Positions 1 through 64,000 of a stretch of DNA of 64,000 nucleotides are shown piece after piece (position 1 is the first letter of the stretch; every line of letters starts with the position of its first letter). The stretch comes from a virus. Location of the stretch: IMG/VR virus record IMGVR_UViG_3300020465_000011, positions 4,482-68,481 of that record. One strand, 5' to 3'. The notes beneath the pieces are model-generated. The model ran no database searches and had not been told where the DNA came from. It saw only the letters and a program-made list of their open reading frames with translations. The translations under genes were made by a program, and so were the position numbers.

Positions 1-1
1 T

Positions 2-211
2 AAAGAAGGCGAACAATTACAGCCATTAGCAGAAATACAATATGTGTATGTTGCACCTGAAATGCAAGGTGGAATGAGTGCTAGTGACTTTAGAAATGCT
101 ATGAAGAGCAATGCAAGTGATCAGGAAAAAGCACAAGTATTTCAAAAGTTCTTTGGTAAATTTGACAAAGAAGTGTTTACTTTTATAAATGGAAGATTAA
201 ATGCGAAGTGA
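2..211 (+). CDS. C-terminal part of a possible HIGH-class nucleotidyltransferase (truncated by window edge)
   Basis: Open frame from position 2 to TGA at 209-211: ...YVYVAPEMQGGMSASDFRNAM...; GMSASDFR resembles the SAS/KMSKS-like motif of phage cytidylyltransferases. Confidence 0.4.
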   Translation, partial: KEGEQLQPLAEIQYVYVAPEMQGGMSASDFRNAMKSNASDQEKAQVFQKFFGKFDKEVFTFINGRLNAK

Positions 212-899
212 TTTACGACCAAGATTAACAGCAAAAGGTAGTTCTGGAGGACTTTTAATGCAAGGTCCTGCAACTGCTTTAAAATCTAGTGGTGTAAGAA
301 ATAGTTTAGTTTTTCCATACACACCTGCTATTACATATCAGAGATCTGCTAATTACGGAACATATGATTTAGCACACACAAATTATCAGCCTAAGTATTA
401 TTCAGCAACACAATCACCATCAGTACAAGTAACATGTTTGTTTACTAATGCAACTGAAGATGAAATAGCATATACACAAGGTGCATTACATTTTTTAAGA
501 ATGGCAAGCCTGATGCATTTTGGTGAAAATGATCCAAATAGAGGAACACCACCTCCGGTGTTATTGTTTAGTGCATATGGTTCTAATCAATTTCAAGATT
601 GGCCGTGTGTAGTAGGTAATGTTGCATATACATTTGATTCAGATATGGATTATGTAGAAAACGTTTCAGTTGGTGGACAAACTACAGATACAAATAATTT
701 AACAGGTATAGGAATCGCAAGTGGAGCTACTCTAATGAGTAGTGCTGGAAATAGTAATGCGTCTGGCCAAATTGTATTACCAGCACAATTATATGTTTCA
801 ATTGAATTACTACATCAGCCTGATTTATTAACAACTCGTAAACAATTTACAGTAGCAAAAATGGCAAATGGTAGTATGCTTAGAAGAGGTTATATATAA
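201..899 (+). CDS. Baseplate/tail-tube-associated protein (tube-initiator-like)
   Basis: FPYTP motif, GxPPPV...FSAYG and 'P.VV.NV.Y.FDSDMDY' pattern; directly upstream of gp53-like gene. Confidence 0.55.
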   Translation: MRSDLRPRLTAKGSSGGLLMQGPATALKSSGVRNSLVFPYTPAITYQRSANYGTYDLAHTNYQPKYYSATQSPSVQVTCLFTNATEDEIAYTQGALHFLRMASLMHFGENDPNRGTPPPVLLFSAYGSNQFQDWPCVVGNVAYTFDSDMDYVENVSVGGQTTDTNNLTGIGIASGATLMSSAGNSNASGQIVLPAQLYVSIELLHQPDLLTTRKQFTVAKMANGSMLRRGYI

Positions 900-1192
900 T
901 GTATAGGGGCGATAGTCATTTAGCACATACGAAAATTAATGCAAAGTTCACTGAACTATATGAACCGGGCAATGAACTATTCTCTACAGAACAAGTAGAG
1001 CATACAATAGAATCTAAACATAATAAAAGGCCAGATCTTTTAGCATACGAATTATATGGTAACCAAAGACTTTGGTGGATATTCATGCATTTTAATCCTA
1101 ATATTATTAAGGACCCTATCATGGATTTTAATTCAGGTAAAACAATACTAGTACCGCTACGACGAGCTAGTTCATCAGACGCAAGGATGTAA
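899..1192 (+). CDS. Baseplate wedge protein, T4 gp53/LysM-like
   Basis: RPDLLAYELYGNQRLWWIF...NP motif typical of gp53-like proteins. Confidence 0.8.
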   Translation: MYRGDSHLAHTKINAKFTELYEPGNELFSTEQVEHTIESKHNKRPDLLAYELYGNQRLWWIFMHFNPNIIKDPIMDFNSGKTILVPLRRASSSDARM

Positions 1193-1194
1193 TT

Positions 1195-4100
1195 ATGCCC
1201 GGAAAAGGTACAGGAGCAAATCCCAAATATAATAATAAATCCGATTCTAGCACAACTTCTGATGTTAAAGTAGGAAATCAAGAAACATTTCTAGAAAATA
1301 TGACCTTTACAGAAAAGATGATTGAATTAGGTGTAGAACCTGGTCTTCTTGAAGAAAAACAGAAACTACTAGAAGAAGGAAATAAAACAAGATACGCACC
1401 TAGAAACTTTAAGAATGCTGTTGATGTTAATATGAATCCTGAAAAATATATGACAGATAAAGAGTTAGAAAGATTTCATGCTCTAGAGCGTTCTCTTGAA
1501 ATGAGGAGAACTTTAAATGGTGGTTTGTATAACAGAAACGCTATGAGATTTGCACCTAATGTAGGTTGGGTAGAGACTAAAGAACCTAAGTATGCATTTA
1601 TCAAATCTGAAAAAACAGGTCAGCTTGTTAAAACAGCATTCATGGATCAAAATGCTTTAGATATGTTTAATATTAATCAAGAAGCTGAGGGTTATACACC
1701 TTATGCTGATCGTATAGCCGCTCCAGAAGCACCAACTCATGTTCCTGCAAAAAAAGCTGTAGTAATGGGAGATTGGTCAGAAAATGTTCTTAATGAAATG
1801 GATTCTTCGACATATCATTTAACTTTATGGATAGACAATGTACAACGTGTTAATCATGAAATACATCAGAATCAAGGAGTTGTTATAGCTGAAACTGGAG
1901 CAAGTACGTATTTTACTATAGACAATTTAGAAATAGTAACAGCGGCCGGAGGCTCGGATATTATTACAAATGATGCATCACAATTAACATTTACTCTCAC
2001 TGAACCCAATGGAGCGGCATTTTTTCCTAAACTACTAGAAATAGCTAGACAAAAGGGAATAAAAAGTATATCAGAAGCTGGTTATGCATTAGAGATACGT
2101 TTTAAAGGTAGAGATAAGATTACAGGAAAACCTGCATCAGATAGTCATAAATGGCTATACAAACTGGTAGTAACAGATATTCAAACAAAACATGATGTGC
2201 AAGGTAGTGTATATAATTTCACAGCTCATAATATGGATCAAAGAGGTTCATTTGAATATTGGAATAATCCAAAACAAACTATATCTTTAACTGAAACAAC
2301 TACACTTGGTGATGCAATAAAAGATCTAGAAAACAAATTAAATGATTACCATGCCATGAAAGCAGTAGCCAATGGTGGAAAACCTGATACTGTAAAGATA
2401 ACACTTATGGATCCAAAATGGAAATCGTGGAAACTGTTAACACCTAAAGGTTCAACTAATACTACATGGAAAGAAGGAGCCCGAGATTGGTCTATGGATA
2501 GAGGTAGTTCTGTTAAAGACTTTATAGGAAAGTTATTAATACACACAAACGAAATGATAGATAGATTAGATAAGGCTGGAGCAGACATAAAACCCGACAG
2601 CAGAGAAGATGTAGCACATTGTACAGATTATCTTTGTAACTTTTTTAAAATTAAAACAACTATTGAATACGGAAATTTATGGAACGAAGTAGCAAAGAAA
2701 TATAATGAGAGAATAGAATATGTTATAATGCCTTACTTAGAACATCCTCCTGAAAAACAAGCTAGATACGAACAAATTCGTAGAAGTAAGACTAAACAAA
2801 AACAAAAGATAGCTGATCATATAAGACATAATTTTTTAAAGAAGCGATACGATTACTTAAACACAGGTATGAACACCGAAGTACTTGAATTTAATGCAAA
2901 CATAGATATGGCATTCTTTCAACCAGAATTAATATATGATGGTAGAACAACATACGGTGCTAAAGCAAAAGAACATAATGTACCAGAAGATCCTAGTGAC
3001 GTAGACACTTCGACTGTTAGTTATAACAAAGAAAAAGCTGACTTGAGTACTATTGAAGGTGTGCAAAGTGAAATAGATCGTTTAAACACTGATTTTATAG
3101 AAACAGGTAAAGAACGAGCAGATGCTGAATCAAAAGTAAAAAATGCTTCAGGCCCAGCTGAGTTTTCATCATTAACTGATGCAATAACAAAATCAAAAAA
3201 TAAAATGAATAAAATACAAGCTGATCTAACTATGTTGGATAAAGTTAAAGGTACTATGCTTCGTTGGGACGAAGGTATTGCTGGTGCATCTGATAGCTTT
3301 GATAGACAGTATCTAGGAGATATAGGTACCTATGAAGATTATTCACTTGTACGAAAATATAAACCAACTGTTATTTCAAGAGCAGGACAGGATCCAGAAT
3401 CTAGTATGATAGAATTAGCACAACAAAGAATAAAAAATATCTCTAGCGAATTGCTTTCTATAGAAGTTGGTATTAAAGGTGATCCTTACTGGTTAGGTCC
3501 ACCTACTAATGAAAAATCTGTATTACAAAAACAAGTAAGACCGGCCAATAGATCTACATTCAAAGTAGTTGATACAAATCTATTTGTAGATTATGATCAT
3601 GGTCCGCCATTGTTTTTGTTTAGTATGTTTTTTCCCGACCATGGTGGTAAACCATATTTTAATAAACTATACAGTGGTGTATATCAAACTATTGACATTA
3701 TACATCAATTCCGCAACGGGCAGTTTACACAGTTTCTTAAAGGTACTAGAATGACCGACATTCAAGAGGAACAAGTAAAAATGTTAGTTGATGCTAAAGA
3801 CCCTACAGTACTAAATCCATATGGTGATGATATAACTGATGATTACTTTGATGAAGGTCTAAACAACGTTGGAACCGATGGAGCACCTATAGGACCTGCA
3901 GAACCAGGACCAGCTTCTGTATCAGCAAGAGAACAACAAGTAATGTCTAGATTAATAAACGAACATGGACTTACACCTGAACAGGCGGCAGGTATTGTTG
4001 GTAACCTTAATAAAGAAAGTGCATTAAAAACTGGTGCTAGAAATGTTGGCGATGGAAATGATGGCAGTGATAGTATCGGTATAGCACAATGGAATAGCAC

Positions 4101-4437
4101 AAGAGCACAAAACTTGCAGAACTGGGCCGCGGCAAATGGTAGGAATCATTTAGATCTAGATACTCAAACAGATTTTATTATGCATGAACTTAACGGTAGT
4201 GGTTCATATGGCGGTGGTAGCGAAAGTCTTGCTTGGAACAAATTAAATGATCCCAATATATCTACACAAGGAGCGGCCGAAGCATTTACATACTATGAAC
4301 GCTTTAAGAATTATAATGTTGCTAATAACCCAGAAACAATATCTAGAAAGTCACAATCAGAAAGAATTTTACTTGAGTATAATCAAGCAAAAACATCTGG
4401 CACTAATACAGCAAACTCGTTAGGACTAGGAACATAA
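1195..4437 (+). CDS. Baseplate hub protein with C-terminal phage tail lysozyme (Phage_lysozyme2-like) domain
   Basis: Hub motifs IKGDPYWL and YSGVYQ..I.HQF..GQFTQ.L; C-terminal AAGIVGNLNKES...GIAQW...R...TQTDFIMHEL. Confidence 0.75.
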   Translation: MPGKGTGANPKYNNKSDSSTTSDVKVGNQETFLENMTFTEKMIELGVEPGLLEEKQKLLEEGNKTRYAPRNFKNAVDVNMNPEKYMTDKELERFHALERSLEMRRTLNGGLYNRNAMRFAPNVGWVETKEPKYAFIKSEKTGQLVKTAFMDQNALDMFNINQEAEGYTPYADRIAAPEAPTHVPAKKAVVMGDWSENVLNEMDSSTYHLTLWIDNVQRVNHEIHQNQGVVIAETGASTYFTIDNLEIVTAAGGSDIITNDASQLTFTLTEPNGAAFFPKLLEIARQKGIKSISEAGYALEIRFKGRDKITGKPASDSHKWLYKLVVTDIQTKHDVQGSVYNFTAHNMDQRGSFEYWNNPKQTISLTETTTLGDAIKDLENKLNDYHAMKAVANGGKPDTVKITLMDPKWKSWKLLTPKGSTNTTWKEGARDWSMDRGSSVKDFIGKLLIHTNEMIDRLDKAGADIKPDSREDVAHCTDYLCNFFKIKTTIEYGNLWNEVAKKYNERIEYVIMPYLEHPPEKQARYEQIRRSKTKQKQKIADHIRHNFLKKRYDYLNTGMNTEVLEFNANIDMAFFQPELIYDGRTTYGAKAKEHNVPEDPSDVDTSTVSYNKEKADLSTIEGVQSEIDRLNTDFIETGKERADAESKVKNASGPAEFSSLTDAITKSKNKMNKIQADLTMLDKVKGTMLRWDEGIAGASDSFDRQYLGDIGTYEDYSLVRKYKPTVISRAGQDPESSMIELAQQRIKNISSELLSIEVGIKGDPYWLGPPTNEKSVLQKQVRPANRSTFKVVDTNLFVDYDHGPPLFLFSMFFPDHGGKPYFNKLYSGVYQTIDIIHQFRNGQFTQFLKGTRMTDIQEEQVKMLVDAKDPTVLNPYGDDITDDYFDEGLNNVGTDGAPIGPAEPGPASVSAREQQVMSRLINEHGLTPEQAAGIVGNLNKESALKTGARNVGDGNDGSDSIGIAQWNSTRAQNLQNWAAANGRNHLDLDTQTDFIMHELNGSGSYGGGSESLAWNKLNDPNISTQGAAEAFTYYERFKNYNVANNPETISRKSQSERILLEYNQAKTSGTNTANSLGLGT

Positions 4438-5672
4438 TGAAAAAAACAATAAGAACTAGAGATACAATACAAGGATACGCCGAAGAACGAGCAATGATAC
4501 ATCTCAATTCACGTGAAAATGTATTAAATGGTGTGTATCTAGCTAGAGTAGTACAAAATTCAGACGAACAATATAATGGGCGTTTTAACGTAGAATTAAT
4601 TGATGATGGATCACCTAGCAATGATCCAGGAACATCGCCTGAAGACTTAATTGGTATTAAAACAATATTACCAACAAGTCCATTTGGCGGCACAACTAGT
4701 TCTAAGACGGCAACTGATAATAAACAATATGCAACCAGTCAAAATTCATATGGTATGGCTCCACAAGCACCTCCAATTGGAGCAACTGTATTGGTAGCAT
4801 TTATTCAACAACAAAAAGAAGGTTTTATGATTGGTTCTATCTTTGACAAAGATAGGAATTATAGTATACCAGGCCTAGCACATGCTGAAGTAGATAAAAA
4901 ATCGCCACCAACTAAAGCACCTGCTAGTGAACTAAATCCTAATACTAAAGACTTTAACGAAGGAGTACAGGCTCCTCACCCAATGATGGCTAATATAGTT
5001 GAAGCCGGCCTAGCAGGAGATTTCATACGTGGTCTTAGTAGTAGTGGTATGCGTAGAGATACTATTAATAATGCATTTGGCTTTACCACAGCCTCTGGAC
5101 ACAGTATTACTATGGACGATGGTGGTAGTGCAGGAACAGATCGTTCTATTAGAATTAGAACAGCCAATGGTGCTCAAATATTATTACATGACGAAGCAGA
5201 AATAATTTACATACAAGGTGCTAACGGTGCTGGATACATTGAAATAGATAGAGCAGGTGCAATAGATATTTACAGTAGGTCAACGTTGAGTGTTAATGCA
5301 GAAGAAGGAATCAATTTTAAAACAGACGGCTCTTTTAATTTAGAAGCTGGTGCAATCAATATGAAAAGTATGCAGAGCGGAATTAAAATGGAAAGTGCTA
5401 CAGGCAAAATTGAAATGCATAGTGCAACTGATGTTACTATTAGTGCAGATGCAAATGGCAATCTAAACTTTGGAGGCAATCTTCGAGCCACAGCATCAAG
5501 AATTGATTGGAATGGTCCAACAGCAGATAAAGCAGAAAAGCCAACACCTGGTGCATTAGCAAGGAACACAGGTGTTAAAGAAAGCATAGCAGGTAGAGTA
5601 CCTGAACATGAACCATGGGGTGGTAGAGATACTTTTGCAGGACAATCGGCTGGAGGAATGCAAACAATATGA
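4437..5672 (+). CDS. Baseplate central spike, gp5/VgrG-like (OB-fold plus beta-helix)
   Basis: YLARVV..D..GR, PPIGATVLVAF OB-fold; GHSITMDD, IRIRTANGAQILL beta-helix repeats; RVPEHEPW tip. Confidence 0.85.
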   Translation: MKKTIRTRDTIQGYAEERAMIHLNSRENVLNGVYLARVVQNSDEQYNGRFNVELIDDGSPSNDPGTSPEDLIGIKTILPTSPFGGTTSSKTATDNKQYATSQNSYGMAPQAPPIGATVLVAFIQQQKEGFMIGSIFDKDRNYSIPGLAHAEVDKKSPPTKAPASELNPNTKDFNEGVQAPHPMMANIVEAGLAGDFIRGLSSSGMRRDTINNAFGFTTASGHSITMDDGGSAGTDRSIRIRTANGAQILLHDEAEIIYIQGANGAGYIEIDRAGAIDIYSRSTLSVNAEEGINFKTDGSFNLEAGAINMKSMQSGIKMESATGKIEMHSATDVTISADANGNLNFGGNLRATASRIDWNGPTADKAEKPTPGALARNTGVKESIAGRVPEHEPWGGRDTFAGQSAGGMQTI

Positions 5673-6427: not shown

Positions 6428-6784
6428 ATGAGATTCGTAGGATATACAACAGTAGATCAACCATTGATAGCTAAGATTTTGCATGACAAGGAACTTGCTA
6501 TTCAAGATCTTAAAAATCATCTTTATACACGTTTAGGCGAACGTGTTATGGATCCAGATTTTGGTAGTATTATACCATTAATGGTTTTTGAACCATTGGA
6601 TGAATATAGTATAAGCGAAATACGAGCCGATGCAGAACGTATTATTGGTCTAGACCCTAGATGGGATTTAATAGATTTGGCTGTTTTAGACAACAATCAC
6701 GATGTAACACTTCAAATTAAATTACAATACATAGACAGAACTGAGGAAGAAGTGTTCGTAGCATATGAAAGAGATATAGTATAA
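6428..6784 (+). CDS. Baseplate wedge protein gp25-like
   Basis: TRLGERVMDPDFGS...FEP...DPR motif. Confidence 0.92.
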   Translation: MRFVGYTTVDQPLIAKILHDKELAIQDLKNHLYTRLGERVMDPDFGSIIPLMVFEPLDEYSISEIRADAERIIGLDPRWDLIDLAVLDNNHDVTLQIKLQYIDRTEEEVFVAYERDIV

Positions 6785-9700
6785 TGGCACAAGGAACTAG
6801 ACAAAACACTTTATTTGCGGCAGAGGATTTTACTGTAGTATACGAAAGTTTTGCTAATAGTAATTTCAAAGCATATGACTTTGATACTATTCGTGAAGCA
6901 ATGATAAACTATGTGCAGAACACTTACCCAGAAGAATACAATGACTGGATTCAAAGTTCTGAATTTGTAGCTCTAATGGATCTAGTGTCATACTTTGGAC
7001 ATAACCTAGCATTTAGATTAGACTATGCTACTAGAGAAAATTTCTTTGGAACAGCTCAAAGACGTGAAAGTTTAATTAGACAATCAAACTTAATTAACTA
7101 TAGAGTAAGACGTAACTTACCAGCATTTGGTTATGGAAAAATAATAGATATACAAACAAACGAAGTAGTATACGATATTAATGGTAATAACTTACAAAAT
7201 AAAAAAGTAAGTTTTGAAAATTCAGCTGAATATGAAAATTTCATTACAGTAATTAACGCTGTACTACAAAGTTCAACTCCTTTTGGTTCTCCGAGTAGTA
7301 GTAAAACATTAGACGGTGAATTATTTGACTTTTATAGATTAAACACTACTGCCGGACAAGCTGTTTTTAAATTTAGTGCAACTGCAAATGGACAATCTGA
7401 TAACTTTGAATTTGTTGGGTTATCATATGATGATACTACAGATACTATTAGAGAATCTGTTCCAAACCCTGCTTCTGGCACTGATATAATATATCAAAAT
7501 AAAAATACTGGTATAGCTGGTAATGATACAGGATTTTTTATGGGTCTGAAACAGGGTACGTTAGCATTTGAAGATTATGCTATTACATCACCTGTTATTA
7601 ATAAAATCATTGACATAAATTCATCAAATGTTAATGATACAGATGTCTGGGTACAAAATATTAATAATACTGGCGCCGTTGCCCAAAATTGGACTAATGT
7701 TAGTTCATTAAGTGGAAGTAATGTAATTTATAACAGTCTTACTAGTACTAATAGATTTATACACAGCACTGAAAGTAGAAGCGAAAATGCTGTTAGTATT
7801 AAATTCAGTGATGGTAATTTTGGCGAAATACCATCTGGAACTGTTAGGGTATGGTTCAGAACAAGTAGAAACGAAACATATACTTTGCGTCCTGTAGACG
7901 TAGGTAAACAAACAATTACAATGAGTTATACTGGTAGTGATGGTAACAATTACACAGCCACACTTGGTATACAACTTAAATCAAATGTTAATACAGCAAG
8001 TTCGGGTGAAACTAATGCTGATATAAGACTTAATGCTCCACAAACATACAGCTCACAAGATCGTATGGTAAGTGCAGAAGATTATACAGTTTATCCTTAC
8101 AATGTTAGTAGTAATATTAAGAAGATTAAAGCACTAAACAGAACACATAGTGGACATAGTAGATTTGTTGATAACATTGATCCAACAGGAAATTATCAAG
8201 ACGTAACACACTTTGGCAGTGATGGTATAATATACAATGAAGGTAAGCAAAAGTCAACTGAATTAGCATTGCCTTCTAGTTTAAGTAATTTAGGTGTTAT
8301 AGAAAAATATATCGAACCTTATATAAATGATGCAGAAGTTATTAACTTCTATTATACAAAATTTGGACCAAAAACATTTAATTATACCAAAGCAACTACA
8401 AGTAATGGTACAAATGCATTTAAATGGCAGAAGCAAAGTGGAAGTACTGGTTACTTAATTTCAGGTGTTGCAAACAACGTTCAAAGAGTTGGCACTAGTG
8501 CAAGTGGAAATTTACGTTATTTTAAAACAGGTAGTTTGTGTGAATTTATAGTAGATACAAGTAGTACTAAAAACTATGTAGATGGTGAAGTTAGTAGTAT
8601 TTCAGTAGTTAATCAAGGTTCAGGATATTCAACTGTTACAGTCGATATAATTGGAGCAGGTACAGGTGCTACAGCAACAGCAACAGTTAATGCTGGTGCT
8701 ATTACTGGTATTAACGTAACCGCCGCAGGTTCTGGATATGATGAATTTACAGTAGCACAAATTACAGATTCTGGTGCAGGTGCTGGCTGTAGTGTAAAAG
8801 TAAATGTAGGCAGTTTAGAAACTATATGGGCTCGAGTAACTAATGTAACAGCCGACGGATTAGGTGCAAACGATACAAATGGTAATAGTACAGGTATCAC
8901 AGAGGCCGGATTAGGTAGTGTAGTTTTTAATAAAGAAATAACAAACAATGCAAGACTGAAACAAGTATGGCCAGTCTGGAATACTAGATTTAGTACTACT
9001 GAAAAAAATGCTATTAATAGTGCTATAAGTTTAAATCAAACTTTTGGTTTGCGTTATGACACACTTAACAGCAAATGGGAAGTAGTTACAACTAATAATA
9101 TTCCTAGTAGTACAAAAACAAACAATGCTGTAACAGCATGGAGTTTAACTAACGCTGGAGATACTAGCGGTACAAATATAGATCAAAGTTGGATTATACG
9201 TGTAGATTATACTACAATAAGGCGTAGATTTACAGCAAGAACTATGCAGTATATATTTGAAACTGCTGGTAGTACAAAATTTTATAACAGTAACGAAAGT
9301 TTAAAACTAGATGCTGTTACTGGCAAACCAAAAAGAGATAACATTAAAATACTTAAAATAAACAATAAATCTGGTACTAGTATTGCACGTTTAGGTACTG
9401 ATTATACATTTTACTTTTATGGAAACTTTACAGAAAAAGACGGACATACAGATCCTAAAAAAGTTAGACTTACAATGGGTAATCCAGATAATGGCAATCT
9501 GCCAGATATTCCTGATGCATTTACTAATATTGTAAGTACTGATACAATTAAACTAGGCACAGTAACAGAAGATGGATATGATTATAGACGATATCTAAGT
9601 AGTGGAGCAGATTCTGTATCGGGTCGTACAACATTAGATTTTAGATATCAGCATGTTGCAACAACAGATAAAAGAATAGATCCGGCATCTACTAATATTA

Positions 9701-10356
9701 TTGATTTGTACGTATTAACACAATCATATCATACAAATTTTGTAAATTGGCTTTTTGCAACAAATCCAGTGGAATCAGATAAACCATTGCAACCAAGCAT
9801 CGACGATTTACGTAGACAATTTTCAAGTTTAGATAATAAGAAAAGTGCTAGTGACACTATAATTTACAGACCTGTAAAATATAAAGTATTATTTGGAGAT
9901 TTTGCAGATGCTTCATTGAAAGCAACATTCCGTGTTGTAAAAGTTCCTGGAGCAAGTATAACTGATACTGAAATTAGAAGTACTGTTATTAATGCAATCA
10001 ACATTTACTTTGATCCAAATCGTTGGGAGTTTGGTGAAACCTTTTACTTTACTGAACTAAGTGCATATATTCACCAAACATTAGCAGGTACAGTCGCTAG
10101 TTTTGTTATTGTACCACAAGATACAGAAAGTGTGTTTGGTAGTTTATTTCAAATTACATGTGCTAGTGATGAATTGTTTATCAATGGAGCAAACACAAGT
10201 CAAGTTGAAATTGTAGACAACTTATCTAGATCTAATTTGCAAAGTACAACTGGTAGTTTTATAAACAGTTCAAGTAACACAGGTGTATCAACAGGATTGT
10301 ACAGCTCAACATCAGGTGGCAGTGGATTAAGCAGTGGCAATAGTGGGAGTTATTAA
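6784..10356 (+). CDS. Baseplate wedge protein gp6-like
   Basis: DFDTIREAMINY, ENFFGTAQRRES, FSDGNFGEIP, QDRMVSAEDY motifs; GSGY repeat insert near 8580-8810. Confidence 0.88.
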   Translation: MAQGTRQNTLFAAEDFTVVYESFANSNFKAYDFDTIREAMINYVQNTYPEEYNDWIQSSEFVALMDLVSYFGHNLAFRLDYATRENFFGTAQRRESLIRQSNLINYRVRRNLPAFGYGKIIDIQTNEVVYDINGNNLQNKKVSFENSAEYENFITVINAVLQSSTPFGSPSSSKTLDGELFDFYRLNTTAGQAVFKFSATANGQSDNFEFVGLSYDDTTDTIRESVPNPASGTDIIYQNKNTGIAGNDTGFFMGLKQGTLAFEDYAITSPVINKIIDINSSNVNDTDVWVQNINNTGAVAQNWTNVSSLSGSNVIYNSLTSTNRFIHSTESRSENAVSIKFSDGNFGEIPSGTVRVWFRTSRNETYTLRPVDVGKQTITMSYTGSDGNNYTATLGIQLKSNVNTASSGETNADIRLNAPQTYSSQDRMVSAEDYTVYPYNVSSNIKKIKALNRTHSGHSRFVDNIDPTGNYQDVTHFGSDGIIYNEGKQKSTELALPSSLSNLGVIEKYIEPYINDAEVINFYYTKFGPKTFNYTKATTSNGTNAFKWQKQSGSTGYLISGVANNVQRVGTSASGNLRYFKTGSLCEFIVDTSSTKNYVDGEVSSISVVNQGSGYSTVTVDIIGAGTGATATATVNAGAITGINVTAAGSGYDEFTVAQITDSGAGAGCSVKVNVGSLETIWARVTNVTADGLGANDTNGNSTGITEAGLGSVVFNKEITNNARLKQVWPVWNTRFSTTEKNAINSAISLNQTFGLRYDTLNSKWEVVTTNNIPSSTKTNNAVTAWSLTNAGDTSGTNIDQSWIIRVDYTTIRRRFTARTMQYIFETAGSTKFYNSNESLKLDAVTGKPKRDNIKILKINNKSGTSIARLGTDYTFYFYGNFTEKDGHTDPKKVRLTMGNPDNGNLPDIPDAFTNIVSTDTIKLGTVTEDGYDYRRYLSSGADSVSGRTTLDFRYQHVATTDKRIDPASTNIIDLYVLTQSYHTNFVNWLFATNPVESDKPLQPSIDDLRRQFSSLDNKKSASDTIIYRPVKYKVLFGDFADASLKATFRVVKVPGASITDTEIRSTVINAINIYFDPNRWEFGETFYFTELSAYIHQTLAGTVASFVIVPQDTESVFGSLFQITCASDELFINGANTSQVEIVDNLSRSNLQSTTGSFINSSSNTGVSTGLYSSTSGGSGLSSGNSGSY

Positions 10357-44752: not shown

Positions 44753-44773
44753 TACATTTAATGGAGATGTTCA

Positions 44774-45535: not shown

Positions 45536-45885
45536 ATGTACATGAACAAAATATGCCGCCGCCACCCCCACCAAGTAAACACCCAGAAGGGTTTGACGGT
45601 ATAGAACCTACAGCTCAAATGATAGGTATATTTCAGCCATGGACTGATGAACATACTAAGTTATTTGAGCGTATATTAGAAACAGAAGTAGATCAAGTAT
45701 GCATAGCAATACGTCATATGCCAATAGATGATAATAATTCTTTACATCCGCATGAAGTAGGAAAGTATATAGAAGATGCATTAAAAGTAAAAGGTTATAC
45801 ACAGTTTAAAGACTTTGTAATTATGATAGTCCCAAACATAACAAGAATCTTTCAACAAAAGGAAGATAATGAAAAGAATATATAG
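45532..45885 (+). CDS. Degenerate cytidylyltransferase-like protein
   Basis: MIGIFQPWTDEH instead of GRxQPxHxGH; IAIR; VPNI. Confidence 0.6.
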   Translation: MNVHEQNMPPPPPPSKHPEGFDGIEPTAQMIGIFQPWTDEHTKLFERILETEVDQVCIAIRHMPIDDNNSLHPHEVGKYIEDALKVKGYTQFKDFVIMIVPNITRIFQQKEDNEKNI

Positions 45886-46174
45886 AACAAACAGACTAGG
45901 TCGTATAAAAGACTTTATTAAAGAATCACACAGATTATCTCCTACAGCATTTTATTGTGAAATGGTGGAAACTGTGTTGCTGTTAACAGCATCGGCAATA
46001 CTCTCATTTACTATTCTTGATCCTGCAACGGAAATATTCATTCCATTATATCTAGCAGGTTCAATACTTGGTATAATTAGTACTGTAATACGCAAAGCAT
46101 TCTTTGCTATTGTGCTATGTGCGTGGTTCACAGTAATGAACACTATAGCACTTATTCAACTAGTAATATATTAA
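45869..46174 (+). CDS. Small membrane protein (about 3 TM)
   Basis: Three hydrophobic segments. Confidence 0.65.
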   Translation: MKRIYRTNRLGRIKDFIKESHRLSPTAFYCEMVETVLLLTASAILSFTILDPATEIFIPLYLAGSILGIISTVIRKAFFAIVLCAWFTVMNTIALIQLVIY

Positions 46175-46183
46175 AAGGTATAT

Positions 46184-46462
46184 ATGATAAAAGTATTCTT
46201 TATCGCAAAGATAAAAAATTTAAATGCAGACTATAAAAATAGAAGCACAAGACTACGCAAAATGGCAGAATCAATGCCAGGCTTTGTTTCAATTGAATCA
46301 GAAGAAATAGATGATGTTGAAATTACTGTTAGTACATGGCGTAGTAAAGAAGATGTACAAGAATGGGCACAAGATTTAACGCATGTTGAAGCAAAACGCA
46401 AACACCAAGAATGGTATCATTGGGTGCGTGGCATACACGTTGAAACTGTAGATGACGAGTAG
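46184..46462 (+). CDS. Antibiotic biosynthesis monooxygenase (ABM) domain protein
   Basis: MPGFVS..ITVSTWRSKEDV..W....H..A.......WY. Confidence 0.8.
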   Translation: MIKVFFIAKIKNLNADYKNRSTRLRKMAESMPGFVSIESEEIDDVEITVSTWRSKEDVQEWAQDLTHVEAKRKHQEWYHWVRGIHVETVDDE

Positions 46463-53255: not shown

Positions 53256-53926
53256 TGAATAGAAAAATACGTGACGCACTAGAAATGTTTTGTGTAGAAA
53301 CGTTTGGCACTCAACCAAATTTAGATGAGCTAGAACCGTTAGTTAATATGTTAGACAAACATGTATTAACAAGGTATTTTGGCAATGAAGGTAATTGGAA
53401 GCCAGATAATAAAAGATTTACAGCAAGTGGTAGTGATTTAATTGCCAAGGTAAATGCATTAAACCCTGAACGGGTACTAGATATAGGCTGTGGATACAAC
53501 TTACTTAAAGGAAAGATACTAAATCTATGGGGTATAGATCCATACAATAGTAATGCGGATCAAATGATAGACATTATGGATATGGAAAACATATATGATG
53601 TTAAAACTGGCAGATATGGTTATGATGTAGTATTATGTTTAGGTAGTATTAACTTTGGTAGCGAAGAAGATATTAAAGAAAAAATAGCAAAAGCAGTAAG
53701 TCTATGTCGACTTGACGGACATATTTTTTGGAGGGTTAACCCAGGTATAACACATACAAAAGATGATGCTGAATGGATAGACTTCTTTGAATGGTCACCC
53801 GAAAAGTTAGAAGCGTTTGCAGAGCAACACGATTGCGATTGCGTCGATGTACAAAAGGATCGTTGGCGTGACGATGACCAAGGATTAAGATATTATGCTC
53901 ATTGGATTCGGCGAAGAAGTATATAA
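53255..53926 (+). CDS. Class I SAM-dependent methyltransferase
   Basis: VLDIGCG, GIDP, LCLGSINFG. Confidence 0.82.
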   Translation: MNRKIRDALEMFCVETFGTQPNLDELEPLVNMLDKHVLTRYFGNEGNWKPDNKRFTASGSDLIAKVNALNPERVLDIGCGYNLLKGKILNLWGIDPYNSNADQMIDIMDMENIYDVKTGRYGYDVVLCLGSINFGSEEDIKEKIAKAVSLCRLDGHIFWRVNPGITHTKDDAEWIDFFEWSPEKLEAFAEQHDCDCVDVQKDRWRDDDQGLRYYAHWIRRRSI

Positions 53927-55229
53927 ACAAGAACCATTTCCATACAGAATATGGGAAGGTAATTTTCTACCCAATGATTTGTATAAAGAATTAAAGCAGT
54001 TAGTTTATGAATTTGAACCAACTAAAGAAACTTTATTAAATGCAAATGAAGATGTGTATCCATATGGGCAAACACATCTTTGTCCTAATTTAAATGGTTT
54101 TAGAGATTTATGGATTATGCCAGAGCATAAAAATTGGTTAGCAGATAAAATATCATGGCCAAAAAATATTACACCAATTATTGATGTAAGTATGCATATA
54201 GACAGTGAAGGGTTTTATCAAAAAGCACACAGAGATTTAAAACCTACACAAAGCCCTGCAGGATATGGAACATTACAAATATATTTTGGTAATGAAGAAG
54301 ATGAAACAACAGGCGCCTGGGTATTGGACGATGAACACAATAAAATAGAACAAGTGCCTTATGCAGAAAATACAGCATGGGCATTTTTAGCAACAAGGAA
54401 TAGTTGGCATAGTGTAGATACTATTAATAAACCTATTAATAGACGCAGTATCATGATTAATGTACGAGGCGATCTAAGTAATCGTAGTACTACAAAAACA
54501 ACTAATTTTAATTTTGTTAAACATAATCCTAGGAAATGGAAATCATTTAGAGATCATACTCGAGTAGATTTTTGTATTACAACGTATTGTCAAAGTAAAT
54601 GTCCTACTTGTCCTAGAACTAATGCAGAAACACTTGAACTAGCAGAGTTTATAACATTACAACACATGCCTTATTCAGTTTGGTATGGTGTTATGGACAA
54701 AGTTGATTGGAGTAGAAAAGAAATACAGTTTTGTGGTGAACATGGTGATCCAATGATGCACCCTGATATAGAAAAGTTTATATTATCAAGTGCAGAACGT
54801 GCATGGCTAACTACAGTAAATACAAACGGAGCTCTTCGTAATAAAAAATGGTATGAAGAAATATACGATAAAGTAGAAGATTGTGATTACGGAGAATTAA
54901 GTTTTGTATTTGCCATTGATGGATTAACACAAGAAACAAATGAAAAATATAGAATAGATGTTAATTTTAAAAAAGCCTGGGAAAATTTCATGACAGTAGC
55001 AGAAAATCATAGTAGACTAACATATTGGGACTTTCTAGTATTTGAGCATAACTGGCATGAATTAGAAGAAGTTATACGCATTGCAAGAGACCTAGAAGTT
55101 AACTTAGATATTAAAGTTAACAGAGGAGATTATCAATGTTTAAAAAGCAACGAAGGTAAACAACACGTAAAAAACATATTAGGTATAGATGTAGATGCTG
55201 AAGGACAACAAATAGGCAAACTACAATGA
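53895..55229 (+). CDS. 2OG-Fe(II) oxygenase - radical SAM fusion protein
   Basis: N-half HRD...SWHSV...RRS; C-half CQSKCPTCPR, CGEHGDP, FAIDGL. Confidence 0.8.
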   Translation: MLIGFGEEVYKQEPFPYRIWEGNFLPNDLYKELKQLVYEFEPTKETLLNANEDVYPYGQTHLCPNLNGFRDLWIMPEHKNWLADKISWPKNITPIIDVSMHIDSEGFYQKAHRDLKPTQSPAGYGTLQIYFGNEEDETTGAWVLDDEHNKIEQVPYAENTAWAFLATRNSWHSVDTINKPINRRSIMINVRGDLSNRSTTKTTNFNFVKHNPRKWKSFRDHTRVDFCITTYCQSKCPTCPRTNAETLELAEFITLQHMPYSVWYGVMDKVDWSRKEIQFCGEHGDPMMHPDIEKFILSSAERAWLTTVNTNGALRNKKWYEEIYDKVEDCDYGELSFVFAIDGLTQETNEKYRIDVNFKKAWENFMTVAENHSRLTYWDFLVFEHNWHELEEVIRIARDLEVNLDIKVNRGDYQCLKSNEGKQHVKNILGIDVDAEGQQIGKLQ

Positions 55230-58116: not shown

Positions 58117-58751
58117 ACAACAAAGGTATAGTAAAACGTCTTAAAGAACGTTTCGAACAGGAACATGAAGTACGCAAACGTAGTCTTGCGTTACATAGAA
58201 CATTAAGCGGCCGCAAGTTAGCAGAAGAAATAACAGCAACTAATCCACAGTTAGTTTTAGATTTAGGTTGTGGTAGTAATGAGTTTAAAAAAGTTTGTCC
58301 TAATGTAATAGGAGTTGATGTAGCAGAACTACCCGACGTTGATTTTAAAATGAGTATACATCAACTACACCTTAAAAAAATGTTTAAGGAAAGAACTGCT
58401 GATTGGATATTGTGCTTTGGTCCTTTTAACTATGGAGGTGCTAGTTGGGCAACTGAAATAGGAAATTGTATGAGATATTATCTTGCTGAACATGGTACAG
58501 TAGTATGTCATGTACATCCAACTAATAGTGAAATAGATTGGACAGAAGAAAATATTAATATATGGGGTAAAGAGTTTGGATTTAAAACTACTAGTGTTGA
58601 AGTAGGATACACTGATATTATGACAATGTCAACCGAAGAATTAGATATACAACAAGAAGTAGCAGAACGCTCACCTGATATAGCATTAGAATTATCTTTG
58701 GGCAAAGATTTAATTAGACCAATGATAGTATGGAGATGGGAACACGAATGA
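58113..58751 (+). CDS. Class I SAM-dependent methyltransferase
   Basis: VLDLGCG, GVD, CFGPFNYG. Confidence 0.8.
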   Translation: MNNKGIVKRLKERFEQEHEVRKRSLALHRTLSGRKLAEEITATNPQLVLDLGCGSNEFKKVCPNVIGVDVAELPDVDFKMSIHQLHLKKMFKERTADWILCFGPFNYGGASWATEIGNCMRYYLAEHGTVVCHVHPTNSEIDWTEENINIWGKEFGFKTTSVEVGYTDIMTMSTEELDIQQEVAERSPDIALELSLGKDLIRPMIVWRWEHE

Positions 58752-59248
58752 GCATAGTACCAATTGGTTGGCCAGAAGTTAAACAAATTTGGTCAGAACA
58801 TCTTTGGCCTGATAGAAAAGATATTAATCGTATGAGTAGCATGTCTGACGCTCATAATTTAGATAAAAATATATTTAAAGCCAAGTACAATACTTCTGAA
58901 AGTAATTATCAACCTTATTTTTTTGGTTGTAGAATAGATAATATATTAGTTGGTGTAAACAGCGGACATCAAACTTCAGATACACATTTTAGAAGTAGAG
59001 GTTTATTTGTATTACCAAATTATAGAAGGTTAAATATTGGTACAGAATTACTACTTGCTACAATAAAAAAAGCACAACAACAAAAATGTAAAATTATATG
59101 GACAATGCCACGCAAGACTGCACTGGCAACATATGAAAATGTAGGTTTTATTAAAAAGAGTGATTGGTTTAAAACTGAAACAGTTTTAGATAGAAGAATT
59201 AAATTACTTGAAGCAAATTGCTACGCCGAAAGGAAGTTAGATGAATAG
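58748..59248 (+). CDS. GNAT family N-acetyltransferase
   Basis: RGLFVLPNYRRLNIGTELL, YENVGF. Confidence 0.88.
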   Translation: MSIVPIGWPEVKQIWSEHLWPDRKDINRMSSMSDAHNLDKNIFKAKYNTSESNYQPYFFGCRIDNILVGVNSGHQTSDTHFRSRGLFVLPNYRRLNIGTELLLATIKKAQQQKCKIIWTMPRKTALATYENVGFIKKSDWFKTETVLDRRIKLLEANCYAERKLDE

Positions 59249-60206
59249 AAAAGAATATCAACGTTATTTTTTAGAAAAAGAATTATTTGAGCAGTCTGCT
59301 CAGCACACAGATATGGACTTTGAAGATTATTATCCAGAACAACCACTAGAAGCATATTGGGATTCTCGTTGGTATGGTGGAGATAATGAATACTACTTTG
59401 ATAAGTTTGAAGAACAAGGTTGGATAGGCTGTCAAGGTATGGACTATAAATTAGATCATATTAAACAAGATCGTGTATGGACTAAACAAGAAGTGCATTA
59501 TAGTTTAGACAAACATGGATTTAGACACAACGTATCACGTAAAGATTATTCTGCAGAAATTCGTGTATTACATGCAGGACAATGTAGTACGTTTGGTATG
59601 GGTATTCCTTACGAATCATGCTATCCTGCTAGAACACACGGATCACATGTTAACATATCTCCATATCATAGTTTAATGAATATGTGGGAACCTGTTAAAC
59701 AATGGGCAGATGAATATAAACCTACACATATTATAATGACTAATCCACGCTTCTTTACAGAAAGTGATTATATGTATTTGCATCTATTTGAACAAAACAG
59801 GCATCGCAATGACGCAGAGTATTGGCGTAGAGCCATCGCGGCAATGTATATGGAGACTAATAGATCTTATACTGAAATATTTTTAGATGGACTAAACAGT
59901 TTTGGTATACCTGTATTATTTTGTTGGGAACCTAGTAGAATGTGGCGACATAGATGGATACGTCATTTAAAGCCTAGGAAAAATATCACTTATTGGCCAG
60001 AAACTTTTCGTTGGGTAGTAGATCTAGCACGTGATTGTAGACGTCCAGGATTAAAGTCACATGCAAATTGTGCATCTAGAATGAATGTATGGCTAGAAAA
60101 TCCTAAGCCTTACTTAGGACAATATTGGATTGACAATAAATGGGATTATCCATATAAGAGTGGCGAAGTATACGATATAGAAGATATGTGTCCGTCTATA
60201 CCTTAG
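59241..60206 (+). CDS. Degenerate SGNH-like protein
   Basis: [26 protein letters not shown] (His of DxxH replaced). Confidence 0.5.
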
Positions 60207-60954
60207 TAGCCCAAACGTATTTTATCCACCAACCAACAGGATCAAACTGCCACCACTTTTCTTGTGTGGTATAACTACTAGCTCTATAGTGATGATTGTT
60301 ATGCCAACCCTCTCCTAAACTTAATAATGCTAGAACAGGATTGTTTGTGCTATGATCCTTGCTTTCATGATCTTGCCAACCCCATAAGTGATTCATAATA
60401 GCATTGCCACCTATACCTGCTATGTAAGTGTATATACAAGGAAATGCAAAAAGCACACCGGCTAGAACAGGGTGTATAATAGCAGAAACTATTAATGCAC
60501 CGGTGTATAATTTAAAATAATGTCTTTGTATAAATTTAAGCTGTTTGTGTCTTAAAACATCTCTTATTAATTTAGGGGAAGTTTCAAATGTATTATAATA
60601 ACCAAGTATTAAAGTCCACCATGGTTGTTGATTGGGTGAGTGTGGATCCACATCTTTGTCGCTGTTAGCATGATGATATCTATGCATAGCAACAATAGTA
60701 ATAGGAGCACCAGTTACACTTAACATACCTAACCATGTCATTATACTTTCTCGTATAGGACCTGTTTCATAGCTTCGATGACTCCAATATCTGTGCCACC
60801 CTCCAAACGTTCCTACACCAATGGACCAAAGAGCCCAAACGACTCCAATCCAAAAGATATCCCATCTTCCATTAACTGAGCACCAATAAATTGTATAAAT
60901 TGTTAGTGAAAAGTTAATAAGCAGTAAGGATCTAATTTTTGCTCCGTAGCTCAT
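60196..60954 (-). CDS. Membrane fatty-acid (delta-9-like) desaturase
   Basis: His boxes [20 protein letters not shown]; DPHSP; TM segments. Confidence 0.92.
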
Positions 60955-61262
60955 GCACCTGCTTCAAATTCTGCTTCAGTAACTGTTATAATATTCATTT
61001 GCATTTTAAAATTATAGCCAGATGATGCTTCGTTTGCAAGGATACTATCCCATGATGTATCATCTGGTACTGCTCCTTTGCAATATACAGCGTTTCCTGC
61101 TGTAGCAAGTTTGTATTCCATAGACTCGATTATATTTGAGTCTATTTGTGTTTGTATGAAAGTCCTCATATCATTGTTTGGATCAACATCGGCAAAGTAT
61201 GCATCAACATTAGCATAAGGTCCGACTCCTAAACATTTTCTATAATAATTAATTGCTGGCAT
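60951..61262 (-). CDS. Hypothetical protein
   Basis: AGGAG RBS; ATGA overlap with desaturase. Confidence 0.6.
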
Positions 61263-61280
61263 GTGGTCTACTCCTATTAG

Positions 61281-61286
61281 TATTTA
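61281..61286 (-). promoter_or_regulatory. TAAATA late-promoter motif
   Basis: TATTTA on + strand upstream of the 61262/desaturase pair. Confidence 0.4.
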
Positions 61287-61739
61287 GTATAAATTTTTAG
61301 TCCAATGTTTTGTGGGTTTGGTATAGTTTTGTCGACCTTGCCCTTGACTTGGACCTCTTTGTCCAAAATGATGATCTAACATTACAGCAAGTCCTGCTGG
61401 TTTTAAATCCATTTTGCTTTCCTTGTTATAACCGCTCTTACGGCTAACTTCTGTATGACTTAGTAACATATCCATAATTGTAATGTGTTTACTTTTTGGC
61501 TTGGGCATTTTGTTTAAACTGTAACCACCAAACACAGCAATACGAATGTTTTCATTGAACTGCCAAAGTTCTATTGCTTCTAGATATGTTTCTTCTATAC
61601 TAGGTAAAGTTTTGTCTGCTGTCATTATCACACAATCAGGATAATAGGGATAGACAGTTTTTAAAAAATGCTGTGCATGTTTGTATTCAGGCAACAGTAC
61701 AAAATTTTTACTCGGTATCGTGTATTTTACTTTTTTCAA
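61284..61739 (-). CDS. Hypothetical protein
   Basis: TTG at 61739 is the likely start, minimising overlap with the upstream gene. Confidence 0.5.
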   Translation of the reverse strand: MKKVKYTIPSKNFVLLPEYKHAQHFLKTVYPYYPDCVIMTADKTLPSIEETYLEAIELWQFNENIRIAVFGGYSLNKMPKPKSKHITIMDMLLSHTEVSRKSGYNKESKMDLKPAGLAVMLDHHFGQRGPSQGQGRQNYTKPTKHWTKNLY

Positions 61740-61971
61740 GTAATTTCTTCTTTTCTTCTTGTTCAATCCATTTTTCACGAAAGTCATACACATTGTCTGA
61801 CTTTATTAGACTGATAATTGAGTTTGTCAAGTCTACTTCTCTACTCAGTATACTAATTTTTTTAGTTAGTTTAAGTAGTTCCTCTTGATAAAAATCTAAT
61901 TCTTTTTCTTTACGTAACTTTTGTTCTATAAATTCTGTTATTAATATTAATTTTGCGTCTTCATCGACCAT
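61708..61971 (-). CDS. Coiled-coil hypothetical protein
   Basis: Heptad-rich; AGGA RBS. Confidence 0.6.
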   Translation of the reverse strand: MVDEDAKLILITEFIEQKLRKEKELDFYQEELLKLTKKISILSREVDLTNSIISLIKSDNVYDFREKWIEQEEKKKLLEKSKIHDTE

Positions 61972-61972
61972 A

Positions 61973-62173
61973 TTAGTTTCCTACATCTTCTCCAAAACCT
62001 ACGCATATATAACCTTTATGATATTCGTACGAACCTGTTAAAAACATTTGTCTGCCTTCAGCCGCCATTTGGCAACTCGGTTTGTAATCATATCTTGCTT
62101 CTTCAGTTACACTAAATGTTCCATCTGCTTCTGCTGTAACCAACAGTAGCAACCACCATGTTATTTTGCCCAT
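61973..62173 (-). CDS. Small secreted/membrane hypothetical protein
   Basis: N-terminal hydrophobic stretch, two Cys. Confidence 0.55.
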   Translation of the reverse strand: MGKITWWLLLLVTAEADGTFSVTEEARYDYKPSCQMAAEGRQMFLTGSYEYHKGYICVGFGEDVGN

Positions 62174-62175
62174 CT

Positions 62176-63570
62176 CTATTCACACTTAATTCCTAATCCT
62201 CGCACCTGATAATTCCAGGCACTCCGTGCAAATGGTCCTTTGCCTTCATAGGCACGTCTATACAACCATTTCTCACAACCATGTTTTTCTCTTTCACTAT
62301 AGTCTAATCCTAACGTATATTCCATAACAAAATAATCTGCTAATGGATGTATATACCTTCTTGCTGAATCAGTACTATATCCACGGAGTCTGAACACTTT
62401 GTGGTGTAAGCTACCTACGTTAACTAAACAGTTACGTTGATATTGTTTATTTGTGCTTGTCCAAAAACCCCAACGGTCTAGCGTTTCCTTAACATCATCT
62501 ACTATACGTTTCCAAGCCATTTCTGCCATAACCTCATCACGTTCGAACTGATCGCTAAAGCTACTGCAATTAAGTGTTGTAGTTTTAAAGTTTTCAACAT
62601 GACTACACATCATGCTGGCTATTTCTTCTACTTTCCACTCGTTATACTTGTTTACGTAGTAGCTTAGGCGTTTACCAGCCTCTCCATAACTAATTATGTT
62701 TCCAACTTCACCAGTTATTATTGTGCCGTCTATTTTGTGTCTATTAAGTGTTTGATGCTTAACTAGCCATGCACTATCATTGAATTCATAATGAATTGGT
62801 GGATCATATGCAGGTGGCTTTATATTAGCATTAATATTTACAGGTGCAATATCTAACATTTCTGCATTGAAGAGTGCATCTTGGAATTCATTGTGTTTGC
62901 CTTTTTTATGTGTTATAGTGTAAAATTCTATATTCTTATGATATCCTAATTGTGCCAATGCACTAGCAACAACGGCACTATCTCTACCACTACTAAAAAG
63001 CATATTAATAGGCTGATCATAACCGCCCAATCTACGATCATAAATTTTCTTTAAATTTTTATCTAATAGTTCTTTATATAGGTCACCGTCCCATGCATAT
63101 CCACGTGGTTTTGCTATGTCGCTGTATCTATGCTGTACACCATTGTGTACATAATGTTCTGGTTTAACTGTAAGTATATCATCATATGGTGTATGTTCAC
63201 CTATAGCATAACAAAAACCAAACATAGAACGCTGTAATTCATACACACCATTTTTAACTTTATGTACATAATATTGTTCCTTCATTGGGTTTGAAATGTC
63301 TTTTAACCATTCAGTTAAACTGTGAAAAATTTTATTTGAATCTGTATAAAAGATAGGAGTTTCAGCTACATGATTAACACAAGCCCACCAATCATCATCT
63401 GTATAGTATACAAATGCAAAAGAACCACGTAGCTCAATAGGAAATATACCTTGACGTAAACTTTCATAGACCATACCAGGTGATAAGTTTGCATCTCCCC
63501 ACCAATAAAAATCTCTATAAAGTTCTTCAAATTTGCTATGTTGATTTATGAATATCATATGATTTGTCAT
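62176..63570 (-). CDS. Asparagine synthetase-like ATP-dependent ligase
   Basis: LRGSFAFV, PIFY, LFSSGRDS (PP-loop), ITGEVG, HPLAD, KWLYR. Confidence 0.75.
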   Translation of the reverse strand: MTNHMIFINQHSKFEELYRDFYWWGDANLSPGMVYESLRQGIFPIELRGSFAFVYYTDDDWWACVNHVAETPIFYTDSNKIFHSLTEWLKDISNPMKEQYYVHKVKNGVYELQRSMFGFCYAIGEHTPYDDILTVKPEHYVHNGVQHRYSDIAKPRGYAWDGDLYKELLDKNLKKIYDRRLGGYDQPINMLFSSGRDSAVVASALAQLGYHKNIEFYTITHKKGKHNEFQDALFNAEMLDIAPVNINANIKPPAYDPPIHYEFNDSAWLVKHQTLNRHKIDGTIITGEVGNIISYGEAGKRLSYYVNKYNEWKVEEIASMMCSHVENFKTTTLNCSSFSDQFERDEVMAEMAWKRIVDDVKETLDRWGFWTSTNKQYQRNCLVNVGSLHHKVFRLRGYSTDSARRYIHPLADYFVMEYTLGLDYSEREKHGCEKWLYRRAYEGKGPFARSAWNYQVRGLGIKCE

Positions 63571-64000
63571 CTGGCCACAGTGGTAATTTTGTACCAGGTG
63601 CTCGTTTAGGTATTTTACTATCTGCTGAACTCACACAACTTTTACTAATACAAGGCATCGGTGTATCAAATAACTTAAAGCCTGTTTCTATGTTGCCAAG
63701 CGGAACATCCGCACAACTATAGGAACGTTTGATGCTTCCGTCAGGCTCTCTGATAATAATACTGCGATATCCTGCACTACATTCCCAACCTTCAAACTTG
63801 TTAAAATTAAATGCATTAAATCTCTCTGCTTGGTCCATATACCACGGATCGCCGTTGGCATCTTTAAATTCTATTTGCATGTTCCATGGAACACTTTTAT
63901 CGTCCCGCTTATCTATTTCTGTGGGAATTTGAAACTGTGGTCTTGGACGGTCACTCCAAACAGCTTTCGTGTCGGTGTAGGCTCTTTGCGGCATTCCGTT
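63536..64000 (-). CDS. C-terminal part of a radical SAM/SPASM-type protein (truncated by window edge)
   Basis: F.GWECSAG..SIII..DG...RSYSC...LGNI...CISKSCVSSAD; frame stays open to the edge. Confidence 0.7.
   Translation of the reverse strand, partial: NGMPQRAYTDTKAVWSDRPRPQFQIPTEIDKRDDKSVPWNMQIEFKDANGDPWYMDQAERFNAFNFNKFEGWECSAGYRSIIIREPDGSIKRSYSCADVPLGNIETGFKLFDTPMPCISKSCVSSADSKIPKRAPGTKLPLWPDDKSYDIHKST

Follow-up and report, generated by a model that had tools for sequence, protein, structure and literature searches.

The 64,000-nt stretch of DNA analysed here (the window) corresponds to bases 4482-68481 of a 68,481-nt contig, IMGVR_UViG_3300020465_000011, which is classed in IMG/VR as a virus record. 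Its protein content marks the contig as part of an uncultured marine jumbo myovirus in the Rak2/PA5oct-like group, with a genome of ~350 kb as judged from the size of its relatives. It carries tail and baseplate genes followed by a block of enzyme genes, and throughout its length it lacks one short word: neither GCAGC nor GCTGC (together GCWGC, where W is A or T) occurs in the 64,000 nt of the window on either strand. A preliminary description of this DNA had proposed a near-absolute avoidance of GCWGC, visible in the codons of Ala-Ala pairs, and had suspected selection by a restriction–modification (R-M) system of the host or by a nuclease of the phage.

Absence of GCWGC from a marine jumbo-phage contig

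The observed count of zero departs strongly from expectation under each of the null models used. For the window, 100 dinucleotide-preserving shuffles yielded 55.57±7.20 GCWGC sites, and a maximal-order Markov model built on the GCAG, CAGC and CAG counts yielded 64.6. Shuffling synonymous codons within open reading frames (ORFs), applied to 59 ORFs that make up 97.5% of the contig, gave 50.7±3.7 sites with a minimum of 41 among 300 shuffles; the Poisson probability of observing none with a mean of 50.7 is ~1e-22. The whole contig of 68,481 nt is likewise devoid of the word. Among all 4-6-mers with enough expectation, GCWGC had the lowest z under the maximal-order Markov model (z = -8.0), and 1,299 five-mers in the window stand a single substitution away from it. 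Since none of the three null models accounts for a count of zero, bias in shorter words offers no explanation. The comparison that the preliminary description had proposed, namely GCAGC plus GCTGC against Markov and codon-shuffled expectation alongside all 4-6-mers, therefore bears out its central claim, with 0 sites observed against 50.7-64.6 expected and GCWGC as the most under-represented word. Neither an observed-to-expected ratio (O/E) near 1 nor a depletion due to shorter words, the two outcomes it had named as contradicting the claim, was found; O/E was 0 under all three nulls.

The avoidance is also even along the DNA, as had been suggested beforehand for structural and enzyme genes. 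The giant structural ORF and the enzyme block listed below are equally free of GCWGC, and the avoidance is thus not limited to a structural module. The main features are as follows:

1195-4437, + strand: tail lysozyme ORF (PF18013 Phage_lysozyme2, E 6.9e-27)
6784-10356, + strand: baseplate wedge gene, 1190 amino acids (phrog_10646, E 4.9e-276), used as the query for relatives and for the tree
10356-24464, + strand: giant structural ORF of 4702 amino acids, directly after the wedge gene, with YHYH, CBM_5_12 and E1_FCCH domains; probably a very large component of the baseplate or of a fibre
31519-47978, + strand: enzyme block identified by family matches, with an N-twitch radical S-adenosylmethionine (SAM) array, a cytidylyltransferase, an epimerase, PhyH and a carbamoyltransferase

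The structural genes are clearly those of a tailed double-stranded DNA phage, and no integrase family was found in the ORFs scanned, which cover about a fifth of the genome. The assignment to the Rak2/PA5oct-like group rests on the wedge protein and on the baseplate hub/lysozyme protein, which is also encoded in the window, together with a genome size above 200 kb implied by the relatives. The wedge protein shares 34-43% amino acid identity (tblastn) with Rak2, PA5oct, Atu_ph07, SCTP-2 and similar jumbo phages of 286-490 kb, and megablast of 20 kb of the window against cultured phages returned no match. For the records of relatives, which are 46-83 kb long, CheckV estimates a completeness of 9-23%, and this puts the genomes of these relatives at ~350-500 kb; on the size taken from them, the contig represents about a fifth of its genome.

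Synonymous exclusion and its conservation among relatives

Because the DNA is nearly all coding, the exclusion of GCWGC must proceed through synonymous choices that differ with the reading frame, and this is what we observe: the word is kept out wholly by synonymous choice, in a manner dependent on frame. GCC or GCG is the first codon in each of the 53 Ala-Ala pairs, whereas these two codons account for only 149 of the 1249 Ala codons that precede a non-Ala codon, the remaining 1100 being GCA or GCT. The contrast drawn in the preliminary description between Ala-Ala pairs and lone Ala codons is thereby confirmed in full, and the three Ala runs it cited as examples are exact in position and in frame with their ORFs:

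4126-4134, + strand: Ala-Ala-Ala, GCCGCGGCA (GCC-GCG-GCA), in frame in the tail lysozyme ORF at 1195-4437
28824-28832, + strand: Ala run, GCGGCCGCC (GCG-GCC-GCC), in frame in the ORF at 28758-29603
30666-30677, + strand: Ala run, GCGGCCGCGGCA (GCG-GCC-GCG-GCA), in frame in the ORF at 30519-31505

The other two frames are closed with the same strictness. Among the 155 NGY-WGY codon pairs (N, any base; Y, C or T), the third positions are T and T in 111, C and T in 31, and T and C in 13, with no instance of C and C, that is, no NGC-WGC. Where a G precedes and a C follows, Gln is never encoded by CAG (0 of 9 contexts) and Leu is never encoded by CTG (0 of 31 contexts). The words that absorb the deficit are GCSGC (S, C or G; O/E 1.43) and GCWGA (O/E 1.46-1.53). 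Relative to the codon shuffle, GCSGC is present in 3.4-fold excess (63 observed against 18.4), which indicates that the selecting agent tells a central W from S, unlike Fnu4HI-type enzymes, whose word is GCNGC. The same means of exclusion is apparent when the 90 GCWGC sites of L009, a locus of the sister lineage described below, are mapped onto the window: 19 fall at conserved amino acids, and the window carries W-to-S replacements in all seven Ala-Ala cases among them and differs at third positions in the other frames.

With the wedge protein as query, 78 loci were recovered from IMG/VR. All nine close relatives (L001-L007, L010 and L011), which come from other metagenomes and share 78-88% amino acid identity, have 0 GCWGC against 11.7-37.7 expected, and they also contain few GCGC. 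In the whole records of two of them, the observed and expected counts of GCWGC were 0/46 (G001) and 0/91 (G002), and in the 185-kb pool of this clade (clade A) they were 0/235 for GCWGC and 17/122 for GCGC. The contig differs from G001 by 4,896 substitutions and from G002 by 9,275; when these were randomly re-placed, keeping the same base and codon position, they would have created 30.3±5.0 and 38.2±5.8 GCWGC sites, respectively, against the 0 found in each record. Selection against the word has thus been sustained and continuous over the divergence of these relatives. The DNA had earlier been called a long-resident island: the first half of that label holds, in that the avoidance is old and maintained, with zero sites in nine of nine relatives and ~30 and ~38 sites prevented, and the second half falls, as all of the contig belongs to a marine jumbo phage rather than to an island within a cellular genome.

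Beyond the close relatives, the absence kept across diverged lineages gives way to normal counts in the sister lineage (61-62% identity, 42% GC). Its record G005, that of L008 (75,787 nt), contains 286 GCWGC against 280 expected, with the same gene order and proteins as the window lineage, and avoids TTAA (8/149) and CTGCAG (8/32). A distant clade (37-39% identity) again has 0 GCWGC against 131.5 expected in 128 kb. One record of this distant clade, the clade B record G003, that of L055 (52,024 nt), combines 0/48 for GCWGC with a second absolute avoidance, that of AGCT (0/102). In a third clade, GCWGC is partly depleted in record G004, that of L041 (29/102), and 17 of these 29 sites are concentrated within 2.7 kb, at 1951-4673, inside two tail-fibre-like genes of the region 1533-5472 on the minus strand (L256), one of which has a Peptidase_S74 chaperone domain. 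The two genes have a GC content of 41-46% against ~35% in their surroundings and look like a recently imported host-range module whose sites are still unpurged. On a FastTree phylogeny of 78 wedge proteins, built without L007 because its wedge gene copy is truncated, 23 rows avoid GCWGC (O/E <= 0.3), and the distribution of the trait needs six changes, or five when only well-supported branches are counted.

Companion words and gene content

GCWGC is not the only word avoided in the contig. GCGC is strongly depleted, with 6 observed against 42.0 in the codon shuffle, and five of the six residual copies fall in GGCGCC, so the leftover sites are non-random in context. Across the family, the avoided palindromes form lineage fingerprints: GCWGC with GCGC, GCWGC with AGCT (an AluI-type site), and TTAA with CTGCAG. 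That each lineage avoids different palindromes is expected if their hosts carry different sets of R-M systems. TAAATA is likewise low, both in the window (45 against 111.7 expected) and in the clade A pool (112 against 244.8), and this depletion may represent avoidance of a promoter-like word; the late promoter of phage T4 is TATAAATA. CTTA/TAAG is also low (452 against 651.7 expected). GTGCAC, CTTAAG and GGATG are depleted both in the window and in jumbo-phage clades with normal GCWGC, and are therefore not specific to the window lineage.

These three words had raised a possible link to pelagiphage HTVC008M (first 50 kb), which we rejected: the shared fingerprint occurs in jumbo-phage clades with normal GCWGC, and HTVC008M has additional avoidances, of GATC, TCGA and ACGT, that are not shared by the window. 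Cultured and single-virus marine phages show absolute word avoidances of their own alongside normal GCWGC counts. HTVC008M at 1-50000 (L082) has TCGA at 0/39, GATC at 24/137 and ACGT at 39/127; P-SSM2 at 100001-150000 (L166) has GCGC at 0/15.5 and AGCT at 51/138; and the marine viruses AG-345-L05 and AG-345-O18 (L083 and L084) have GCGC at 0/9 and 0/6, respectively.

Among the remaining genes of the window, the most prominent are those of a tandem radical SAM array at 31519-43154 (+ strand), together with a further ORF downstream:

31519-33093, 33086-34555, 35435-36868 and 36865-38064, + strand: radical SAM genes above the NCBIfam cut-off, of the N-terminal-twitch family NF033640
38058-39338, 39322-40479 and 42093-43154, + strand: radical SAM genes with weaker matches
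53895-55229, + strand: radical SAM/2-oxoglutarate (2OG)-oxygenase-like ORF

Two further blocks, at 43160-47978 and 58730-63570, hold genes for the modification of sugars and small molecules. They include a PseF-like cytidylyltransferase, an NAD epimerase/dehydratase, a PhyH dioxygenase, a carbamoyltransferase, a GNAT acetyltransferase, a fatty-acid desaturase and an Asn-synthase-like protein, and are predicted from these matches to belong to a glycan or metabolite pathway; no link from them to DNA modification was seen. The scanned ORFs of the window matched no DNA methyltransferase or restriction enzyme family, and their matches to small-molecule methyltransferases were weak and remained below cut-off. 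No tRNA genes were found in the window.

Host restriction as the probable cause, and its alternatives

Known restriction endonucleases recognise the avoided word. BbvI, a type IIS enzyme, has the site GCAGC. TseI recognises G^CWGC according to the relevant portion of PMC3643589, and the corresponding portion of PMC8557920 gives GCWGC as the recognition sequence of ApeKI and M.ApeKI. Because the type IIP enzymes TseI and ApeKI and the type IIS enzyme BbvI define the same sites in duplex DNA, the absence of sites does not distinguish between these enzyme types. Their recognition word matches the avoided one, and they discriminate W from S in the way reflected in the window, where GCSGC is enriched. 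However, they were obtained from thermophiles and Brevibacillus, not from marine plankton, and no such gene was seen in the phage fragments.

Four features jointly point to restriction-site avoidance: a known Type II word is fully removed, it has long been kept out, the means are synonymous, and additional palindromes are avoided in a lineage-specific manner. We regard it as highly probable that the cause is sustained selection by a Type II enzyme of the host, of TseI/ApeKI or BbvI specificity, acting on unprotected sites. This remains the best explanation for an absence that is real, lineage-specific and synonymous, and it agrees with the first of the two sources proposed in the preliminary description. 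In this scenario, phage DNA inside the host cell would be exposed to a Type II endonuclease recognising GCWGC; genomes bearing the word would be cut, and each mutation creating GCAGC or GCTGC would be purged. Ala-Ala would consequently be written as GCS-GCN, NGC-WGC pairs would carry T at one of the third positions, and CAG or CTG standing between a G and a C would be swapped for synonyms. The incomplete avoidance of GCGC would point to a further system in the host. We infer the host enzyme as the agent behind an observed absence, its significance, the codon-level means, its conservation, and its loss and gain between lineages. From the avoidance itself it is also a reasonable inference that the cytosines of the phage at GCWGC are not protected by modification.

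Several observations weigh against a host enzyme. Neither a cognate restriction gene nor a methylome for GCWGC came to light. The promise of a host-prediction handle, held out in the preliminary description, was pursued through cellular contigs, the taxa of a sugar epimerase and two other phage groups, and yielded no host. Scanning cellular contigs with the baseplate protein produced only three distant matches (35-44% identity), in unrelated metagenome-assembled genomes (MAGs), with normal GCWGC wherever it could be counted. The Atlas taxa for the sugar epimerase of the window were scattered and indicated no host. Neither of the phage groups avoids the word: 80 pelagimyophage-like loci contain 633 GCWGC against 764 expected, a weak deficit showing in 2 of the 57 testable loci, and 80 cyanomyovirus-like loci contain 1321 against 1128, with none of 77 low. 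As sampled, the avoidance is thus confined to the jumbo-phage family, which a cause borne by the phage would equally predict. The other roughly four-fifths of the genome, moreover, could hold sites, methyltransferases or nucleases. Finally, the sole marine GCWGC methylation found in print, in the sections of PMC6329791 and PMC8919816 that treat it, is an N4-methylcytosine (m4C) motif of Chloroflexi MAGs.

Together with M.AbaBS3I, an orphan m4C methyltransferase from freshwater Chloroflexi, this marine MAG motif makes up all the GCWGC-directed DNA modification that our searches found described in aquatic or marine plankton (PMC6329791 and PMC8919816, in the same sections). The enzymes are described there as methyltransferases lacking a restriction partner. 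Their companion motifs are unmatched in the phages, and no link to the window phage emerged. A connection through the Chloroflexi methylome (GANTC, TTAA and GCWGC) was also examined at the level of words and rejected: in six whole records, counts of GANTC gave no sign of avoidance, and neither the window contig nor the records of clades A, B and C avoid TTAA.

One alternative places the cutting enzyme in the phage. A phage-encoded GCWGC endonuclease would attack the DNA of the host or of competing phages, with the phage's own genome kept safe by the absence of sites and without methylation; we consider this unlikely. We give slightly less credence still to its more specific form, in which the avoidance is self-immunity to a nuclease carried by jumbo phages ('restriction without modification') and gained or lost between clades. 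Such gain and loss would explain why two other abundant groups of marine phages show no avoidance, and the restriction of the trait, among the phage groups sampled, to the jumbo-phage family, with none in the 80 pelagimyophage-like and 80 cyanomyovirus-like loci, fits an enzyme of this kind. So does the outcome for DNA methyltransferases, with PF00145 (C5 enzymes) matched in none of five relatives' records, all of them partial genomes, and no DNA methyltransferase family of any kind in the scanned ORFs of the window. A nuclease candidate was likewise absent from the window ORFs scanned, which counts against a phage enzyme, but such an absence is weak evidence either way because only ~20% of the genome is seen. 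The trait is also patchy on the tree, with at least 5-6 changes, and the companion palindrome differs by lineage (GCGC, AGCT or TTAA), for which changing R-M repertoires of the hosts provide the simpler account.

The remaining alternatives fare worse. If GCWGC were C5-methylated by a methyltransferase of host or phage, it could have been eroded by deamination of 5-methylcytosine; known GCWGC methyltransferases do include C5 enzymes, M.ApeKI methylating the second C according to the portion of PMC8557920 devoted to it. The C-to-T products are, however, not in excess (O/E 1.02-1.04 for GTWGC/GCWAC and 1.08-1.10 for GCWGT/ACWGC), which speaks against decay of methylated cytosine, and the replacement in Ala-Ala is always W to S (53 of 53), a change that deamination cannot produce. 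Since mutational decay would in addition not arrive at exactly 0 of ~235 sites in 185 kb, we find it very improbable. It is just as improbable that GCWGC is reserved as a signal of the phage for packaging, replication or promoter function and purged elsewhere. The depletion of TAAATA suggests that avoidance of signals may act in this genome, but a reserved signal should leave some copies, and neither the 68.5-kb contig nor the 185-kb pool of relatives has any; in the sister lineage, whose gene order and proteins are the same, the word occurs at a normal level (286/280). An artefact of sequencing or assembly, such as systematic miscalls at a modified motif, can be set aside almost entirely. Papers mentioning GCWGC do, in the parts available, discuss base-calling errors that modification causes at methylated motifs, yet the replacements are synonymous and frame-dependent, and this frame dependence effectively refutes an origin in chemistry or base calling. 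The absence is, furthermore, common to nine separately assembled relatives, and contigs from the independent runs X4 and X6 are identical to the window sequence over up to 4 kb. Marine-metagenome runs from four studies contain the stretch, with >= 0.79 of the sampled words present. None of the 40 variants listed (of 343, from four runs) creates GCWGC, a result that says nothing on selection because chance alone predicts only 0.25 new sites.

Selection by a host Type II enzyme, the reading we favour, would place these phages in well-charted territory. Phage K, which lacks GATC, and Bacillus phages lacking GGCC are classic cases of site avoidance. Complete or near-complete elimination of sites affects about a tenth of phage genomes, mostly concerning orthodox Type II sites and non-temperate phages, as stated in the relevant portion of Rusinov et al. 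2018 (PMC6286503). The window resembles the virulent double-stranded DNA phages treated there in that a short Type II word is fully eliminated by synonymous means, in a lineage-specific manner and alongside other sites. It differs in concerning a very large genome, of ~350 kb, from an uncultured marine family within which several separate clades avoid GCWGC. Extrapolating from the 50.7-64.6 sites expected in the contig to ~350 kb, roughly 270-330 GCWGC sites would be absent genome-wide. The literature searched contained no previous account of any phage avoiding GCWGC and no paper joining 'restriction site avoidance' with 'jumbo phage'; the main text of the marine jumbo-phage survey PMC9123017, in the form available, contains neither 'restriction' nor 'methyl'.

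Collectively, the avoidance of GCWGC is a clean new example of a textbook anti-restriction strategy, one that refines rather than changes existing knowledge. Fingerprints of avoided palindromes would provide testable markers of host range where a phage lacks a predicted host, and in the present family they predict a GCWGC-specific restriction system in some marine bacterium. They also suggest a route to enrichment, in which marine viral DNA would be digested with TseI or ApeKI (plus HhaI or AluI) and the uncut high-molecular-weight fraction kept. For the biology of these uncultured marine jumbo phages of ~350 kb, the finding would mean that classical Type II restriction exerts a strong and persistent pressure on them.

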